A stretch of DNA of 64,000 nt, from IMG/VR virus record IMGVR_UViG_3300045988_074170, one strand, 5' to 3'. The DNA is from a virus. The notes beneath the pieces are model-generated. The model was not told the DNA's origin and did no database searches. It saw only the letters and a list, made by a program, of their open reading frames with translations. Position numbers and translations under genes: made by a program. Shown piece by piece: positions 9,294-19,048 of this stretch (within the stretch, counting starts at the first letter, position 1; each line of letters opens with the position of its first letter).

Positions 9294-10412
9294 TTATCCG
9301 ATGAACAGTTCGTTCAGTAACGGGTTCCGGAACTCTACCAACTGTTTTGTCCAATAACGGAAGATAACCTTTGCCCAGTCAGAGAACATCTCATCTTCAA
9401 ACTTTTCAATATCCGCACGCAATAACTCGAAGTCCTGTTCTGTACGGTTTTCACTGTTACGACAGTTTTCTTCGAACTGGCTCAACTGAGCGATAAGCGC
9501 ATCGAACTCCTCTAAAGTTTTAAACGTCGTCTTATAGGAAAAGTTTACTCCGGAAGGATACGAATTTGGGTCTCTTTTAGCGATTTCTTCAGCCAACGGA
9601 ATGAAGTCCTTATAGACATGAAGATTGTCTGCCTTGTGGTAATATTTCCCGACAGGCACGCCCACTATCGCTGCGACGTACTCCTGCATCAATGTAAAGT
9701 TGAACACGTTCACCGCACTGAACCCCCAGATAAGGTCATTCGAACGGATATCCACGTAACAGTTCATCTTTCCATTCACTATCATGAAGTGGATTGAACG
9801 GGTACACGGTGTATCCTTTGTGAGGAGCAATGGAGCCTTTTCCCCGTCCTCTTCATTCTGATTGAAGTTGTCAGAGATAGGGTCGTGAATTGTGATAACC
9901 GCTTCACGGGTATCGATGTCCTGCTTGAACTTTTCAATGACGAACCGTAATTGGTCAGTCACGTTCTGGTACAGTCCGGGAGCCTTCAATTTTGAATAAC
10001 GACCGTTTTCGTCTGCTTTACCGTTCTTATACTGTCGCGGAAGTAACTTTCCGGACAATGTTACCATCGAATCAAAATTGTCCCCGTAACGACGTATTCT
10101 GGGTCCATATCCCGCTCTCATGAACTTCCCATCATCTGAAAAGTTTACAAGGTTCTTCACGTAGGAAGCAGGCATCTCAAGACTGTTATCCCCACGAGCC
10201 AACCACAGGGACTCAATCCACCCCAATGTTTTGTTCCATTTACGCTCCGGAACACGAACATAGCGGTCGGTCGGATTAGTTATCTCAATGAGGACGGCTC
10301 CAGGGAACTCACGACATTCGAACCCTCTTCGGGTAACGTCAATCCCTTTATCCATCAATTCCTTACAAAGTAGCACCAGCGCACTACTCAAATTTTCTGC
10401 TTGAAAATACAT
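9294..10412 (-). CDS. Thymidylate-synthase-fold enzyme, candidate dUMP/dCMP hydroxymethylase
   Basis: 372 aa. TPCTRSIHF resembles the catalytic PCH..QF motif. RSNDLIWGFSAVNVFNF resembles RS.D..LG.PFNIASY. It is roughly 100 aa longer than canonical ThyA. Confidence 0.7.
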   Translation of the reverse strand: MYFQAENLSSALVLLCKELMDKGIDVTRRGFECREFPGAVLIEITNPTDRYVRVPERKWNKTLGWIESLWLARGDNSLEMPASYVKNLVNFSDDGKFMRAGYGPRIRRYGDNFDSMVTLSGKLLPRQYKNGKADENGRYSKLKAPGLYQNVTDQLRFVIEKFKQDIDTREAVITIHDPISDNFNQNEEDGEKAPLLLTKDTPCTRSIHFMIVNGKMNCYVDIRSNDLIWGFSAVNVFNFTLMQEYVAAIVGVPVGKYYHKADNLHVYKDFIPLAEEIAKRDPNSYPSGVNFSYKTTFKTLEEFDALIAQLSQFEENCRNSENRTEQDFELLRADIEKFEDEMFSDWAKVIFRYWTKQLVEFRNPLLNELFIG

Positions 10413-12230: not shown

Positions 12231-12967
12231 TATTTACCTTTCTCAAACGTTTCAAAAGAGTTTCTTTCAATGTAGTCCGACGCTTCACAGAAAGCCACGA
12301 ACTCTTCACATAGTTCTGACAGCCCAAAGAAATTGAAAATATGAACACCCAAGTCCCAGACCGGAGCGTCATACGGTTGGTCGTGAAGAACCACACAACC
12401 GCCAGCCTCATTCACCTCTTCTCCCTCTCTTTGAGCCTTTTCGAAGTCGTGCATAAAGGTTCTGTGCTTTCGCCACATGCAATCTCCCTTAGGAGACTCG
12501 CCAGACCTGTATGCTATCCGAGCACAATACTCATCCCATTGGTCGTCACGGTAATCATACCTGACATGGAGAATGTTCGTAAACTCACTCTCTCCGCATA
12601 AATCCAAGGGACGCAATCGCCATGATACAGTTGTTCCTGCACCATCAATCAAAACTCCATGCCCTGCCTTAGACGTTTCCTTCAAGAAGTAGGATAGACC
12701 CTCAGCCTTGCACAGTCGCGACGTCATACTGTCGTAACCTTGCCAGCGTCGGATACCGCCATTCTCATAGAATTTCCCAACGAAAACCATATTGAAGTCC
12801 TCGGAGTAAACCCCGACTTCCTTTTCCTTTCCGTCAAGTGTCTTAAACTTGTATGGGCGGAGTTTCATACCTAATGATTCGAAGAACTCGAGGAAGAGGT
12901 AAACCCTTGTAGATTTACCGCTCCCCGAGATGCCTTTAACCAATACTATGGATTCCCCGTCAACCAT
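12230..12967 (-). CDS. P-loop kinase, candidate 5-hmdU DNA kinase
   Basis: 245 aa with Walker A GISGSGKST at residues 12-20. It is the neighbour of the aGPT-Pplase-like gene, separated only by the homing endonuclease. The assignment rests on context. Confidence 0.4.
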   Translation of the reverse strand: MVDGESIVLVKGISGSGKSTRVYLFLEFFESLGMKLRPYKFKTLDGKEKEVGVYSEDFNMVFVGKFYENGGIRRWQGYDSMTSRLCKAEGLSYFLKETSKAGHGVLIDGAGTTVSWRLRPLDLCGESEFTNILHVRYDYRDDQWDEYCARIAYRSGESPKGDCMWRKHRTFMHDFEKAQREGEEVNEAGGCVVLHDQPYDAPVWDLGVHIFNFFGLSELCEEFVAFCEASDYIERNSFETFEKGK

Positions 12968-13687
12968 TTACTTCTTCTTTGGAGTTTTCTTTGCGGGTGC
13001 AGGTTTGGCGTCCTCAGCCAGTTCCAACGCTGTTACACGTTTCTTGATAGGCTTGTCGTCACCGAACTTGACCATACACTTTTCTTTTCCGTCTCCGGAC
13101 TTGTACAGGCGAGTGATTTCACCAACAGCGTCCTCGCCTTTCAGGATAACTTTCGAACCTACTTTCAGTCCCGGAATTTCTTCCGATTCTTCGAGGTTCT
13201 GACGTTTTGTTTCACGAGGAGTCTTGTCGGCTTTCGCTGACTTCTTTTCCTTCATAGACTTGTCTGATTTAGACGGAGTCTTGCGGTTTTTCTGACGTTC
13301 CTCGTACTCTGCCTCAGCCTTTGCCAAGCGTTCTTCCTCTTCCGGAGTCAGTTGTTCTTCTGACTGATAGGTAGAGTTGCGTTTGTTCTGACGTTTCATT
13401 GCTGCTTCGGGTGAACCGTCTTCAGGGTCGGGGTCTTCAGCAGCCTCTTCTTTCGCAGCTTTCTTAGGAGCAGCCTTTTTGTCAGCTTTCTTTTCAGCGA
13501 CTTTCTTGGCTGGAGCTTTCTTAGGAGCTTCCTCTTCTTGAGCGGTTTCGCCACCTAATTTGTCAAGGAACTCTTGAGCTACCTTAACTTCCAATTCACT
13601 TGAATTTTCATCATTGATGATTTCTTCGAGCTTTTCAGCATCGAACTTTCTGTACTTCATCCGAAGTGCTAATGCATTACTTGCCAT
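12968..13687 (-). CDS. Lys/Ala/Pro-rich (histone-H1-like low complexity) protein with small C-terminal beta domain
   Basis: 239 aa. Contains KKAPAKKVAEKKADKKAAPKKAAKEE and ends with PAPAKKTPKKK. C-terminal region is LKVGSKVILKGEDAVGEITRLYKSGDGKEKCMVKFGD. Confidence 0.5.
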   Translation of the reverse strand: MASNALALRMKYRKFDAEKLEEIINDENSSELEVKVAQEFLDKLGGETAQEEEAPKKAPAKKVAEKKADKKAAPKKAAKEEAAEDPDPEDGSPEAAMKRQNKRNSTYQSEEQLTPEEEERLAKAEAEYEERQKNRKTPSKSDKSMKEKKSAKADKTPRETKRQNLEESEEIPGLKVGSKVILKGEDAVGEITRLYKSGDGKEKCMVKFGDDKPIKKRVTALELAEDAKPAPAKKTPKKK

Positions 13688-13750
13688 AATCGTTTTTACT
13701 TTTAATTATTAAAATTGTTTTTCTGTGATGTTTTATCACTTATCTCGCTA

Positions 13751-13758
13751 CAAATATA
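13751..13758 (-). promoter_or_regulatory. -7 promoter box (TATATTTG)
   Basis: Plus-strand caaatata reads TATATTTG on the minus strand, 64 nt upstream of the ATG at 13687. Confidence 0.4.
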
Positions 13759-13805
13759 ACTGGAAATTTTCGAAAAGGTTTAATTTTCTCCCCGAAAAAT
13801 CGAAA

Positions 13806-14003
13806 TTATTTTTTGCCGGAATGACCAAATCCACCCGCACCTCTCTCAGTGTCAGTGAGTTCTTCGACTGAAGAAACTTCGACAACTTCCTCGACTTTTG
13901 CATACGGAGCAAAGACGATTTGGGCAATTCTGTCACCATTCTCGATTGTTTGTGGTTCTGTCGACAGGTTAATCAACGGAACACCTACTTCCCCACGATA
14001 ATC
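13806..14003 (-). CDS. dut: dUTPase exon 2
   Basis: Encodes [12 protein letters not shown]...GDRIAQIVF...[12 protein letters not shown], covering the second half of dUTPase motif III plus motifs IV and V. It is in the same frame as exon 1. Confidence 0.85.
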
Positions 14004-14873
14004 CATTTAATTTTGGAGATTGTTAATCTAACAGGCTCTTTATCCTGCTATTTCTTTGCTTTATTTTGTTATATGCAAAGTTCAGACTATATCTTCACTT
14101 TCTTTTGAAAGGCAGGACACTCGTGTCAGCATTACTGTCCTCAACCTTACTTGTTTGGACTCGGCTGTTAGTCGTTGAACCTTCAAGAACATTACTGTTC
14201 ATGCTTGGCTGCTGATTGCCCACTTCTGGGTTTTCCAGCAATTCACCCTGTTTTAAGACGCCAATTATTCTGCCTGTTTTATTGTCTCTAATAATTGTCT
14301 TTTCAAAATTATGAATTGTCGTATGCTCTCCGCGAGTTAAAACTTCAAGATTTTCTAATCGATTGTCAGTCTTATCTTCATTTATATGATGAACATCGTA
14401 ACAATCTTTCAAAACTATCCAGCCACATATATTTTCAAACAGTTCTTTAGAAAACTTGTCATAGTTTCTTTCAATGATTAATCTGTGTTTCAATATATAA
14501 GTTGCCTTCCCTCTATCTCGAATTTTACCACCTTTAGGATGTCCAGGAACATTTTCCATTATATAACCTGCTGAATTTATCTTTTCATCATGCTTATAGG
14601 AACTATTCAACTCCCCTGTCAATCCAAACTGATGGTTCCCCTCACCCGTCATATATCTTGAACGTAAAATCTTTCCACATTCTTTTGAGCATGAAACTCC
14701 ATGAATTTGACGTTTAAGTCTTGACGGCTTTACCCACATTTTAACTCCACAAATTGAACATTGACAATTTGGTTCTCTATCAAATTTTCCCATACCATTT
14801 ATATTTATCGGCACAAAGTTAGTCAACTTTAATAAAGAACCATAGACTCTTATCAAGCAGTCATTAAAAGTCC
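14004..14873 (-). mobile_element. Group I intron (870 nt) interrupting dUTPase motif III, carrying an HNH ORF
   Basis: The 5' exon ends in U (GAC GCU|) and the intron ends in G (AAAUUAAAUG|GAU). An R-like element GUUCAACGACUAACA lies at 14166-14180 and an S-like element AAGAUAUAGUCU at 14084-14095. Compare Tetrahymena GUUCACAGACUAAA and AAGAUAUAGUCG. P7 pairing GACUA/UAGUC is possible. Confidence 0.8.
14095..14793 (-). CDS. HNH homing endonuclease encoded inside the dut intron
   Basis: The HNH motif DVHHINEDKTDNRLENLEVLTRGEHTTIH and N-terminal Cys clusters (CQCSICG, CSKECG) are present. ATG at 14793 (MGKFDRE); the ORF track extends to a TTG at 14856. The 3' end overlaps the intron R and S core elements. 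Confidence 0.8.
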   Translation of the reverse strand: MGKFDREPNCQCSICGVKMWVKPSRLKRQIHGVSCSKECGKILRSRYMTGEGNHQFGLTGELNSSYKHDEKINSAGYIMENVPGHPKGGKIRDRGKATYILKHRLIIERNYDKFSKELFENICGWIVLKDCYDVHHINEDKTDNRLENLEVLTRGEHTTIHNFEKTIIRDNKTGRIIGVLKQGELLENPEVGNQQPSMNSNVLEGSTTNSRVQTSKVEDSNADTSVLPFKRK

Positions 14874-15125
14874 AGCGTCTATCGTTCCGGGAGCATTGAT
14901 TACGGTCAGACCCTGTTTAACAGCGCAACCGCTGCGAGGTCTAACCTGACCCTCGTACCCCTGTTCGATTTCCATGTACAAACCAGTAGGAATGATTTTA
15001 CGCTCCATAGGAGCCAACGTGATTGAACCCTCGGGAAGATAAGCACGCAAGTCCATACCCGAACTGTCTGGAGTTTTGTACTCCGGCAGAGCATTTGTGC
15101 TCTTGTTTACGATTTTTAATTTCAT
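14874..15125 (-). CDS. dut: dUTPase exon 1
   Basis: Carries SSGMDLRA (motif I), RPRSGCAVK (motif II) and GTIDA (first half of motif III). The unspliced frame stops 6 codons into the intron. Confidence 0.85.
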
Positions 15126-15655: not shown

Positions 15656-16366
15656 TTATTTCCATAAATATCCTCGATAAGGCAAACCATCCTCAAGTCT
15701 TTTCCTTAAAGTATGCCCATTCAATTTCAGTTCTCGTTTGATATCAATTATAGTATTCCATTCTTTAATAAATATTCCACCCTTCGAATATTGAAATACT
15801 TTTCTACAATTATTTTGATACCCAGGTTTTCCCGAATTCGCTTCTGATATTTTTCTTTTTGTTTCTTCTGAATGATGTTTTCCATATAATGGATGATTCT
15901 TTCCAGAAAGTTTATGATTTCCGAAATTCGAATTTAATTCCCCAATTCGTAATTTAGCAGCATCGCTCATTCTTTTCAAAGTCTCATCCGAAAATTTTCT
16001 ACCTTTCAAGGCTTTGCTGATTTTAGCAAGTGATTCTTCAGAAAGATTTACTAAACCATCCCCACCATCTGTCGAATTATACCCGTCAATCTTAGTGTTG
16101 AACCGCTTTATAAGCCTCATTTCAGCGTAGTCAAGTTTCCTCTTGAGAGCATCCTTCGTAGGAGCCTCCACGAACATCACCTCTTCGACCAGGAAGTTCT
16201 CCTCACCATACTTTCGTATGGCTCGGTGGAACTTGTGGTCGGAGCCTCGCTGAGAAGAACGAACATGCCGTCTCCAACGACTCCTTATAGAGAGCATCGT
16301 TTGCCCGAAGTACAGTTTCCCAGTGGGCAGACAGGTGACGCAATATATGAAGCCTTTCTGAATCAT
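15656..16366 (-). CDS. GIY-YIG homing endonuclease (free-standing)
   Basis: Contains GFIYCVTCLPTGKLYFGQT, FHRAIRKYG and YNSTDGG, plus NUMOD3-like repeats. Overlaps the primase stop by 4 nt. Confidence 0.9.
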   Translation of the reverse strand: MIQKGFIYCVTCLPTGKLYFGQTMLSIRSRWRRHVRSSQRGSDHKFHRAIRKYGEENFLVEEVMFVEAPTKDALKRKLDYAEMRLIKRFNTKIDGYNSTDGGDGLVNLSEESLAKISKALKGRKFSDETLKRMSDAAKLRIGELNSNFGNHKLSGKNHPLYGKHHSEETKRKISEANSGKPGYQNNCRKVFQYSKGGIFIKEWNTIIDIKRELKLNGHTLRKRLEDGLPYRGYLWK

Positions 16367-17397
16367 AACTTTCCCAAATAAAAATTTAACGGGTCTTCAA
16401 CATTTTTCAAAACATCTTCAAGTTCTTCAATTGAAATATTTCCGGGGTCTACTCCTGGAGTTCTAATTGCTGCAACCCAAACTGAATCAAACAAATCCCT
16501 CATTCTCAAGGCTGCTTCTTTACTTTCTTTTATTGTTCCATAGTCGTACAAAAGAATTATATTCTTCACTTTCTTTTTCAAAAGCATATCAATTTGTCCC
16601 CGACCAATAGAATTCCCAAAAGTAAAGCAACATTTCAGCCAATCCTTTTCTGTTAAGTTCAAAAGATTTGAAATTCCTACATAATCAAAAATCCCTTCAA
16701 CCAAAATAACCGTTTCAGTCCTTCCCTCTATCAACTCATCGCAACCCCCTAACAGGTCTTGAAAGTTATTCTCGGAGTTCCTGTAACGTAACACCAAGTC
16801 AGCCTCGTGACGCTTGTATGCCTCAAGATTTTCTTTGTGCCATTCCTTTGAATACCTACTGCGTGCCCACCACGCCACACACACACCATTGACTTTCATC
16901 TTAAAGATGATGAAGTTCTTCAACTTCGCTTCCAACGGTGTATTGGTATAGGAAGGCTCGAACTCCGCATAGTGTTCAGGTCGGAACCCACGATTATTCA
17001 GGTACTCATCATCCACAAGTGGTTTCAGCCGTAACGGAAGAGTAACAGGCTTTAATTCCTCTTCCTGTACCTGTTCCGCATCACCCTCCATCCACTTCGA
17101 TGTCTCCCCCTGAATATCACCTATCTTCGGACAGTTCTCAAGTTCATTCGGCTTGACTGTATAGGAGCGTTTCGCGAGGTCTGTTCTACCAAGTTTCTTG
17201 AGGAACTCATAGACGGACACTTTACGAGGACACTTCCAACAGTGGAACGTTGCCACGCCATTCATGTTGAAGATGATACCCCACTTCCCTGCTTTTCCGC
17301 AGAAAGGACAGTCCATATCCTTATTCGTGAGCCACCCCTGTGAACCAAATGGCGTGAGATTAAAATCAGCGATTATCTGTTCCTTATCGTACCGCAT
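16363..17397 (-). CDS. DNA primase (zinc ribbon + Toprim)
   Basis: Zinc ribbon CPFCGK...HCWKCPRK and Toprim-like ILVEGIFDYVG / LLYDYG. ATG at 17397 is preferred over the upstream track start, which would overlap the helicase. Confidence 0.75.
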   Translation of the reverse strand: MRYDKEQIIADFNLTPFGSQGWLTNKDMDCPFCGKAGKWGIIFNMNGVATFHCWKCPRKVSVYEFLKKLGRTDLAKRSYTVKPNELENCPKIGDIQGETSKWMEGDAEQVQEEELKPVTLPLRLKPLVDDEYLNNRGFRPEHYAEFEPSYTNTPLEAKLKNFIIFKMKVNGVCVAWWARSRYSKEWHKENLEAYKRHEADLVLRYRNSENNFQDLLGGCDELIEGRTETVILVEGIFDYVGISNLLNLTEKDWLKCCFTFGNSIGRGQIDMLLKKKVKNIILLYDYGTIKESKEAALRMRDLFDSVWVAAIRTPGVDPGNISIEELEDVLKNVEDPLNFYLGKL

Positions 17398-17404
17398 AAC
17401 GAAA

Positions 17405-19048
17405 TTATTTCTTGCGAGGTACAGGCTTCCTCGTTGTCTTCGGAGTTTCCTGCACACCCTTGTTTGCTAAATATTCCTTGAGCGACTGTTTAGTCTGTCG
17501 CTTATTCAACGTCTCTTGTGGCTCCTGCGCAGCCGTTTCACCCTCGCCAACTACCTTTGTTCCGTACACTCCTGGTGCTATCTCTACTCGCTCCTTCTTC
17601 TCCCCAACGGCTGCTTCTCCGTTACCTTTACGGCTGCGACGGCTCTCAAGCCTGTCAAGAGCCGACATATCCAACACCTGCTCAACGATTGTTGAACGTG
17701 ATATATCGTAGAAGAAGCCGTTCTCGTAATTAGTAGGGATTCGAATGATGATACCATTGTTTCGGTAGTTTCGTAACTTATCACAATAGATACGAGCCAT
17801 GTTCTGTTTGCCCTCTTCAATTGTAATGTTACCTGTAAACACGAACGAGAATGGCTTGATAAGTGTGCGGTCACCCTCTGTATTCTGGCGAGTGATTACC
17901 CGTGTCGGGTCGTTCCATACTTCAATAGGAACGTCTCCCGTCTGGGTCGCTGTAATTACGGCACAGTCGTATTTCTTCGCGATATCCTTTAATCGCTGGG
18001 CACACTTCTGTAACCTGTATTTGATGAAGTTCGGGTCGAAGTCAATCTTCTTATTTTCTCCTGTCAATAACAGGTCAATAGAGTCGACTGTGACCAAGTC
18101 AGGATAATACCCATACTCTTTTTTATAGTCCTCTATCGCAGCCACCAAGTCGGCTATCGTCATGTCCATCATCTCTTCAGAAGCGTACACGTCAATATCA
18201 CTGTTCACCGTTTGCGCCCTCTTGATGAGTGCGGAGATACGTTGTCGGGTCTCATCGCTGACATCACCCCTCATGATTTTCGCATAGGTAGTGTTCGCCA
18301 ACATTTGGTCAAACTTAACAACCGCCTCATCACGACCACCCTCTAACTGAAAGTGAAGACAATGATTGTGGGCGATTGATGTATTGTACCAAGAGAAGTA
18401 TTTAAGAGCCGTGGATTTACCAACACCGGAACGCATGATGAGTAAGACGGTATCCTGGCGAGGAATTCCCCCATCAGTAATTTCGTCAATCGTTGATATT
18501 CCTGTCGGTATCTTTGCCCGACGTGTTTCATCCTCGGCTTTCATTTGTGCCGTTCCTATGTTCCGATAGAAATCCCTGTACACCCGTACAAACTTCCCTC
18601 GGAACTTGTCTAAGGAAAAAGCGTTTATTTCCGCCATTCTTTTCTCAAGAAGAAGCATCGCTTCCTCTGGCTTCCCTTCATTATACATATCCGACACTTC
18701 GTGCTGAGTAGCAACAAACGTCTGGCGTCTAATAAAGGTTTCCAATTGCCGTGTCATGGGTTCTACCTCTGGAAGTTTAATTCCCTTGACCTCAGCAATC
18801 TTCTTTGAAACTTCCTCGTTGTTAGGGAAGGTCATTTCCACCATACCGAATGTCGCCAGATTACCCGTTTTCTTCATCGTATCTGCCAACACTTTCAGCA
18901 TCGCTTTACACCCTCCCAATTCTCGGGGGAAGTTACTTAAATCAAGATTATCTACCACCAACTCCGCAAACTGTTTATTCGCAAAAGCCAACCTCAACAT
19001 TTCCTCTACAAAGTTAGGTGATAGAATAGCATCAACTTTTTTGCCCAT
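17405..19048 (-). CDS. DnaB-like replicative helicase
   Basis: 547 aa with Walker A RSGVGKST, Walker B DLVTVDSIDLL and a RecA-fold C-terminal half. Adjacent to primase. Confidence 0.8.
   Translation of the reverse strand: MGKKVDAILSPNFVEEMLRLAFANKQFAELVVDNLDLSNFPRELGGCKAMLKVLADTMKKTGNLATFGMVEMTFPNNEEVSKKIAEVKGIKLPEVEPMTRQLETFIRRQTFVATQHEVSDMYNEGKPEEAMLLLEKRMAEINAFSLDKFRGKFVRVYRDFYRNIGTAQMKAEDETRRAKIPTGISTIDEITDGGIPRQDTVLLIMRSGVGKSTALKYFSWYNTSIAHNHCLHFQLEGGRDEAVVKFDQMLANTTYAKIMRGDVSDETRQRISALIKRAQTVNSDIDVYASEEMMDMTIADLVAAIEDYKKEYGYYPDLVTVDSIDLLLTGENKKIDFDPNFIKYRLQKCAQRLKDIAKKYDCAVITATQTGDVPIEVWNDPTRVITRQNTEGDRTLIKPFSFVFTGNITIEEGKQNMARIYCDKLRNYRNNGIIIRIPTNYENGFFYDISRSTIVEQVLDMSALDRLESRRSRKGNGEAAVGEKKERVEIAPGVYGTKVVGEGETAAQEPQETLNKRQTKQSLKEYLANKGVQETPKTTRKPVPRKK

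Follow-up and report, generated by a model that had tools for sequence, protein, structure and literature searches.

A group IA intron with an HNH endonuclease gene at catalytic motif III of dut in a gut phage

Why does the dUTPase gene (dut) of an uncultured gut phage break off within its catalytic motif III and resume in the same frame 870 nucleotides (nt) farther on? The question is raised by the 64,000-nt stretch of IMG/VR virus record IMGVR_UViG_3300045988_074170 that was analyzed here (the window), in which the two parts of dut lie on the minus strand on either side of an open reading frame (ORF) for an HNH protein. An initial annotation, made from the letters alone, had proposed that dut is split in motif III by an 870-nt group I intron carrying an HNH gene, and this proposal has held up in a covariance-model scan, in a comparative structure, against intron-less alleles and in the presence/absence polymorphism of the insertion. 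We consider it highly probable that the element is a mobile, splicing-competent group IA intron with its HNH homing-endonuclease gene in the P1 loop.

An exact insertion in motif III of dut

Exon 1 of dut closes with the codons GGA ACG ATA GAC GCT (GTIDA), the terminal base being U at 14874, and exon 2 opens at 14003 with GAT TAT CGT GGG GAA (DYRGE). The two share a reading frame, and the segment between them, 14873..14004, is exactly 870 nt long and terminates in G, all of which agrees with the positions first proposed. The insertion falls between the fifth and sixth codons of motif III (GTIDA/DYRGE). Read through without splicing, the minus-strand ORF 15125-14853 covers the N-terminal portion of dUTPase to ...NAPGTIDA and then six intron codons before UGA UAA. 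Once the intron is removed, the 3' end of exon 1, ...AUAGACGCU (14874), abuts the start of exon 2, GAUUAUCGU (14003), and the joined segments 15125..14874 and 14003..13806 encode a protein of 149 amino acids (aa). This spliced product matches Pfam dUTPase (PF00692) at 3e-28 over residues 12-147 and profile positions 4-129 of 129, in one stretch that spans the junction and includes motif III.

When IMG/VR was scanned with the spliced protein, uninterrupted dut homologues (L015-L022) were recovered that share 95-97% protein and ~92% DNA identity with the spliced product. Across the insertion site these intron-less alleles carry GGAACCATTGACGCTGACTATCGTGGGG, so that GACGCT is followed directly by GAY TAT CGT (in L015, GGAACCATTGACGCT / GACTATCGTGGGG); at the junction they read ...GACGCT/GACTATCGT..., and the window reads ...GACGCT, then the 870 nt, then GATTATCGT.... 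The flanks on both sides of dut are colinear with the intron-less relatives as well. The boundaries of the intron are set by these alleles save for a one-base ambiguity caused by a shared G, which was settled as 14874/14004 because of the rule that the exon ends in U and the intron in G and because of the P1 helix described below. That both exon frames are intact and the product is so close to that of the intron-less alleles implies that dut still has to be expressed.

The initial annotation had supposed that the insertion site might be new, which is not the case. crAss-like phages already carry it: in crAssphage (Carjivirus communis, BK010471), gp34 is annotated as 'putative Dut dUTPase, contains intron insertion' and gp35 as 'putative intron-encoded HNH endonuclease', the gene being split after the same codon, and the same split is annotated in the crAss-like phages cr50_1 (MT774375) and cr1_1 (MT774380). 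The same intron at the same site is thus already on record, and the window intron is a well-supported further case.

The ribozyme core and its distant guide sequence

RF00028 was the sole Rfam family to match the 64-kb window, with 64.4 bits, above the gathering score of 50 bits, and E = 4.9e-14 for the window in its entirety, over 14315..14066 and model positions 1-253 of 253. The R-like element GUUCAACGACUAACA (14180..14166) and the S-like element AAGAUAUAGUCU (14095..14084), on which the group I assignment had first been based, both lie where they were first read, and the P7 helix is paired in all 14 lineages compared. A motif scan of the window found no further cores of the dut-intron family.

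A fold from P1 to P9, which the initial annotation had suggested drawing, was obtained by comparison. Fourteen non-redundant lineages were aligned with the variable P1 loop exchanged for a fixed linker, and P1, P3, P4, P5, P6, P6a, P7 (a pseudoknot), a bipartite P7.1/P7.1a, P8, P9, P9.1 and P10 were placed on the alignment. Standard pairs occupy 93.2% of the 949 cells, compared with 81.1% in column shuffles and 32-45% when the partners are slid by 1-3 columns; changes on both sides occur in 29 of the 68 pairs, and none of 500 shuffles matched the observed covariation score. P3, P4, P6 and P7 are 100% paired and almost invariant, as is expected of a catalytic core, and the compensatory changes sit in P1, P10, P5, P6a, P7.1, P8, P9 and P9.1. 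Every helix of this structure is intact in the window copy. The P7.1/P7.1a hairpin is an insertion relative to the Rfam consensus, with 100% and 96% of its cells paired and with compensatory changes; because this extra hairpin stands between P7 and P3', the intron is assigned to subgroup IA. The element that Rfam labels 'P2' (14315..14285) was rejected, since the true guide falls within an insertion of the Rfam alignment and only 5 nt separate P1 from P3.

No canonical P1 with a U-G pair had been found by eye in the initial annotation. This is correct for the region near the intron 5' end, where the only complementary stretch was rejected as a guide because the splice-site U would face A and the helix would stop 3 nt short of the splice site; it does not hold for the intron as a whole. 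The guide sequence AUAAUU-G-GCGUCU lies at 14268..14256, ~610 nt into the intron, directly 5' of P3 and inside the HNH ORF. P1 is predicted to form across this distance between the exon end AGACGCU and GGCGUCU, the U.G wobble falling at the cleavage site, and P10 between AUAAUU, just 5' of GGCGUCU, and the first six bases of exon 2. The splice-site U.G is invariant in 14 of 14 lineages, three further P1 positions covary with the exon, and P10 cells are paired in 92.9%, with one covarying pair (C-G in seven lineages and U-A in seven). Exon and guide change together from AGACGCU/GGCGUCU in the window to AGACUAU/GUAGUCU in crAssphage and to AGACUCU/GGAGUCU, AGACUGU/GCAGUCU, UGACGCU/GGCGUCA and CGACGCU/GGCGUCG in other relatives. 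P1 is 7/7 paired in almost all distinct exon/guide combinations, and the layout is common to every relative. With exons so aligned, the P3-P9.1 core, through its guanosine-binding helix P7 and the terminal G, would carry out two transesterifications and release a messenger RNA for the 149-aa dUTPase.

A different outcome was envisaged with the initial annotation, namely that the two halves of dUTPase are made separately, the second from the ATG at 14006; they might then assemble into an active enzyme, and no splicing would be needed. The last three bases of the window intron are indeed AUG, in frame with exon 2, and open a 66-aa ORF (14006..13806). However, this AUG is not conserved, other members of the family ending in ...AAAG, ...UUUG or ...GUUG; the break lies inside a catalytic motif; and a complete ribozyme, with covarying P1 and P10 helices set exactly on the junction, would have no purpose. 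We therefore find a split enzyme scarcely credible.

The helix near the intron 5' end that was rejected as P1 is a 12-base-pair pairing of exon 14888..14877 with intron 14847..14836 (GUCUAUGGUUCU). It is significant in L011 alone, where it is perfect (12/12, with a single compensatory change and z = −4.2); the window lineage gives a marginal value (z = −1.5, p ~0.07), and other lineages lack it. It is kept as a possible lineage-specific alternative pairing. The coordinates of all features are collected in Table 1.

Table 1. Coordinates of the dut exons, the intron, its helices and its reading frame in the window.
Feature	Position	Strand	Remarks
dut exon 1	14874..15125	−	84 codons, ends ...GTIDA; colinear with uninterrupted dut (L015-L023) over the first 252 nt of the latter
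dut exon 2	13806..14003	−	DYRGE... to stop codon
Group I (IA-type) intron	14004..14873	−	870 nt, omega-G at 14004; Rfam RF00028, intron-less alleles, comparative structure
Tandem stops UGA UAA	14850..14855	−	exon-1 frame, six codons inside intron
HNH homing-endonuclease ORF	14095..14793	−	232 aa, ATG 14793, stop UGA 14097..14095
P1 5' strand, last 7 exon bases AGACGCU	14874..14880	−
P1 3' strand, internal guide sequence GGCGUCU	14256..14262	−	7/7 paired; G14262 opposite splice-site U14874
P10 guide part AUAAUU	14263..14268	−	pairs with exon 2 GAUUAU (14003..13998), 6 base pairs
Ribozyme core	14030..14250	−	helices P3-P9.1, comparative structure
P3	14250-14246 with 14117-14113	−
P4	14240-14235 with 14215-14210	−
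P5	14230-14227 with 14222-14219	−
P6	14209-14207 with 14181-14179	−
P6a	14203-14197 with 14190-14184	−
P7	14173-14169 with 14089-14085	−
Bipartite hairpin between P7 5' and P3 3'	14127..14167	−	41 nt; P7.1 CAGC/GCUG, P7.1a GUCC/GGAC
P8	14111-14107 with 14102-14098	−
P9	14080-14075 with 14059-14054	−
P9.1	14049-14044 with 14035-14030	−
Possible alternative pairing competing with P1, GUCUAUGGUUCU	14836..14847	−	weak candidate; complementary 11/12 to exon 14888..14877

The HNH reading frame within the intron family

The family was collected with a conserved 18-mer from P7.1/P3', which retrieved 37 viral and 97 metagenomic loci. A dut-type guide sequence is present at 101 loci, and 47 distinct complete introns of 251-1116 nt, all with a terminal G, occupy the same dut codon. 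In the ORF-less introns of 251, 278 and 282 nt, which yield continuous dUTPases when spliced in silico, only 11-44 nt lie between the splice site and the guide G; P1 is therefore a hairpin, and the ORF is an insertion in its loop. Introns of 389-759 nt carry truncated or broken ORFs, and the exon frames are intact in 5/5 family members translated in silico. The intron is polymorphic in its presence among genomes whose flanks are 92-99% identical, and in L186 it sits in an exon context identical to that of intron-less alleles, with one P1 mismatch, which is consistent with a recent invasion. Taken together, the ORF-bearing, decaying, ORF-less and intron-less alleles are the full series of gain, decay and loss expected of a homing element.

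The HNH ORF of the window begins 80 nt into the intron (homologous ORFs in relatives begin at +70 to +113) and matches Pfam HNH_3 at 3.2e-8 and 33.5 bits, above the cut-off of 24.8 bits, as well as 11 PHROG HNH families. The HNH catalytic motif DVHHINEDKTDNRLENLEVLTRGEH starts at residue 133, and no Pfam or PHROG match extends beyond residue ~170. The P1 loop supplies the codons for residues 1 to ~177, the guide sequence being encoded from about residue 176, and the ribozyme, between the internal guide sequence and P8, supplies those for residues ~178-232. This C-terminal stretch of ~55 residues (...IIGVLKQGELLENPEVGNQQPS...GSTTNSRVQT...SNADTSVLPFKRK) is specified by P1-3', P3, P4-P6, P7-5', P7.1, P3-3' and P8. 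An overlap of the ORF with the ribozyme core had been recognized in the initial annotation and is real, but the ORF does not stop inside the S element as was then stated: its UGA ends on the first S base (14095).

Every intact full-length ORF of the dut-intron family reads the core in one common frame, with stops that vary by lineage: UAA in the P7.1 internal loop, UAG or UGA around P8 and J8/7, UGA immediately past P7-3' in crAssphage and, for certain lineages, a stop as far on as P9.1. Indel differences in the variable core loops, counted by eye on the alignment, are multiples of three in five of six cases, which hints at selection for an open frame. We hold it possible, though rather doubtful, that the ~55-codon tail is a case of true dual coding, in which ~165 nt serve the guide, P3-P7, P7.1 and P8 and at the same time encode a protein tail held in frame by selection. 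If so, translation of the endonuclease and folding of the ribozyme would form a built-in either/or switch, and the tail may itself function, for example in nucleic-acid binding. ORFs that extend into the core are a known arrangement, with expression tightly controlled so that folding and splicing are spared (2014 review, PMC3984707); the overlap seen here is a known kind of feature, though large.

Because the HNH frame runs through the guide and the core to P8, a ribosome on the ORF would be expected to unfold the ribozyme, and a given RNA molecule should then be either translated or spliced, not both. During co-infection the endonuclease presumably cleaves or nicks dut alleles that lack the intron, and repair would copy the intron into the broken allele (homing).

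Related cores with other guide sequences occupy other genes. At L005 (964-1845), a GIY-YIG ORF enters the core in the frame used by the dut HNH ORFs (...ELLENP...QQPS...GSTTNSRV), and the neighboring ORF resembles ribonucleotide reductase by eye; at L006 (6647-7342), an HNH-like ORF uses a different core frame (...KVQRLTAES...) and adjoins a possible structural gene. Different endonuclease families have colonized the same position of this ribozyme type.

Relatives, spread and competing explanations

The closest documented counterpart is the crAssphage intron, in which exon 1 ends ...GGT ACT TTA GAC TAT and exon 2 opens GGC TAT CGT GGA GAA. It interrupts the same gene at the same codon point (after the fifth codon of G-x-x-D-x and before G/D-Y-R/K-G-E) with a ribozyme of the same family, whose core shares 79% nt identity with that of the window and scores 64.6 bits on RF00028, and it carries a homologous HNH ORF (46% aa identity) in the P1 loop that reads the core in the same frame. 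It differs in length (1016 nt versus 870 nt in the window), in two P1 pairs, both changed in a compensatory manner, and in the end of the ORF, which lies after the P7 3' strand in crAssphage and before it in the window. The dut exons of the two phages, in contrast, share only ~29% aa identity, and the window phage is not one of the Crassvirales, having a PHROG tail-sheath homologue and a terminase closest to those of DAC19-type phages. Rossi et al. 2020 (PMC7551546) mention the insertion in crAssphage, which they call recent and confine to nine contigs from the samples of a single family. Our literature searches found no published description of the ribozyme, and no dut-located group I introns beyond crAss-like phages, the Bacillus phage papers being concerned with introns of nrdE, terminase and polymerase genes.

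In 6-kb scans of the crAss loci L001 (crAssphage), L002 and L003, Rfam gave no match at the gathering threshold or at E ≤ 1, whereas the 331-nt crAssphage core scanned alone gave the score cited above. The miss on these AT-rich loci is a filter artefact, and a negative default scan is therefore no evidence of absence for this family; the failure of all group I models to pass threshold, which had been offered with the initial annotation as grounds for refuting an intron, is for this reason unsafe.

The window encodes a DNA polymerase, a primase, a DnaB-like helicase, a large terminase and a portal protein; its tail-sheath homologue is matched in PHROG and not in Pfam, and its terminase is closest to those of Bacteroides thetaiotaomicron phages of the DAC19 type (37% identity). 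By this gene content the phage is evidently not crAss-like. When window positions 1-25000 were compared with catalogued phages by megablast, the sole match was the intron core. That core is 76-80% identical to Crassvirales cores whose dut exons share 27-36% aa identity with those of the window, and the family is present in at least two Crassvirales families as well as in this non-crAss phage. The simplest reading, which these identities suggest, is that the intron has spread horizontally between phage families that share hosts.

Two well-known groups of phage introns offer a wider comparison. I-HmuI is the HNH homing endonuclease of the SPO1 DNA polymerase group I intron, and the window protein resembles it in that a phage group I intron encodes its HNH motif (DVHH...N...N...H, Pfam HNH_3); it differs in giving no sequence match to I-HmuI, in its Cys-rich N-terminal region and in its ribozyme-specified C-terminal tail. 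The intron ORFs of T4 lie in P6/P6a or P9.1 loops, whereas that of the window lies in the P1 loop, overlaps the ribozyme far more (~165 nt, from the guide through P8) and accompanies a ribozyme with no P2. The T4 td, nrdB and nrdD (sunY) introns are otherwise comparable: they are phage group IA introns in conserved catalytic regions of nucleotide-metabolism genes (PMC3984707, PMC2988022), with homing-endonuclease ORFs (I-TevI, I-TevII and I-TevIII) and in-frame stops soon after the 5' splice site.

Several points weigh against the interpretation as a mobile, splicing-competent intron. Splicing itself is something that we infer from the sequence. The P2 helix is absent, the spacer between P1 and P3 being UAAAA only, which is unusual without being disqualifying. 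At 14117, on the 3' side of P3, the window has U, where C is found in L007-L010, its 99.8%-identical relatives, and in every other member of the family; the change turns a G-C pair into G.U, which still pairs, and replaces Ala with Val in the HNH tail. A PDB sequence search gave the HNH protein no meaningful match to solved structures. Finally, the likeness of cores from distant hosts could partly be due to purifying selection and not to recent transfer.

The indirect case for splicing, the altered P3 pair and the clearly decaying ORFs of some family members would all suit a dead relic, that is, an insertion that no longer splices and leaves dut a pseudogene in the window phage. We judge this very unlikely. 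The window copy retains all helices of the comparative structure, its two exons are open, and the exon frames of the other members translated in silico are intact; the 95-97% identity of the spliced product to intron-less alleles is a degree of conservation not expected of an inactivated gene, and therefore counts against a relic.

Somewhat less remote, though still improbable, is an intron that splices in vivo only with the help of a host factor or of its own HNH protein acting as a maturase. The lack of P2 and a P1 loop of ~600 nt, which holds the exon end and the guide ~610 nt apart, could create such a need, and in most lineages the tail of the ORF stays in frame across the core. Against this, the ORF-less members of 251-282 nt retain this core and evidently survive in the absence of the protein, the Rfam score of the core is like that of ordinary self-splicing phage introns, and searches of Pfam and PHROG found no maturase-type domain in the HNH protein. 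An intron that splices by means of its own ribozyme is the explanation that we retain.

Some neighboring features are also recorded. Two genes upstream of dut there is a homing-endonuclease gene of the GIY-YIG + NUMOD3 type (window 15656-16366, minus strand; PHROG 'homing endonuclease', 4.6e-36). The ~740-nt segment that contains it (indel at ~15665-16406) is absent from the colinear genomes L015, L017, L018 and L022 and present in L020, and the gene is therefore a free-standing mobile endonuclease gene and not a part of the intron. Between this insertion and the intron, the segment 14873-15664 (dut exon 1 and the upstream ORF) shares 98-99% identity with L015 and L017, against ~92% in the outer flanks (12240-14003 and 16407-18000); such mosaic identity would be compatible with a tract of recombination or co-conversion at one of these two sites associated with endonucleases. 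Elsewhere in the window, a thymidylate synthase homologue (9294-10412, minus strand, 372 aa) matches Pfam Thymidylat_synt at 5e-17 over residues 66-292 only and is long for its family. In crAssphage BK010471, between gp41 and gp42 (L001 315-439), a ~124-nt near-perfect hairpin or palindrome gives spurious sub-threshold hits to microRNA families on both strands.

These results leave the understanding of group I introns unchanged, and their value lies mostly in annotation and phage ecology. Gene callers report the split dut as separate 'dUTPase' fragments (as in MT774375 and MT774380), and the exact junction and guide now allow correct annotation across many gut-phage genomes. The dut-intron family is far wider than the published crAssphage remark suggests and could mark genetic exchange between co-infecting Bacteroidota phages. 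The large overlap of ORF and ribozyme makes it a tractable system for the putative conflict between translation and splicing, and the series at a single site, from ORF-bearing through decaying and ORF-less to intron-less alleles, illustrates cleanly, in a natural setting, the life cycle of a homing endonuclease.

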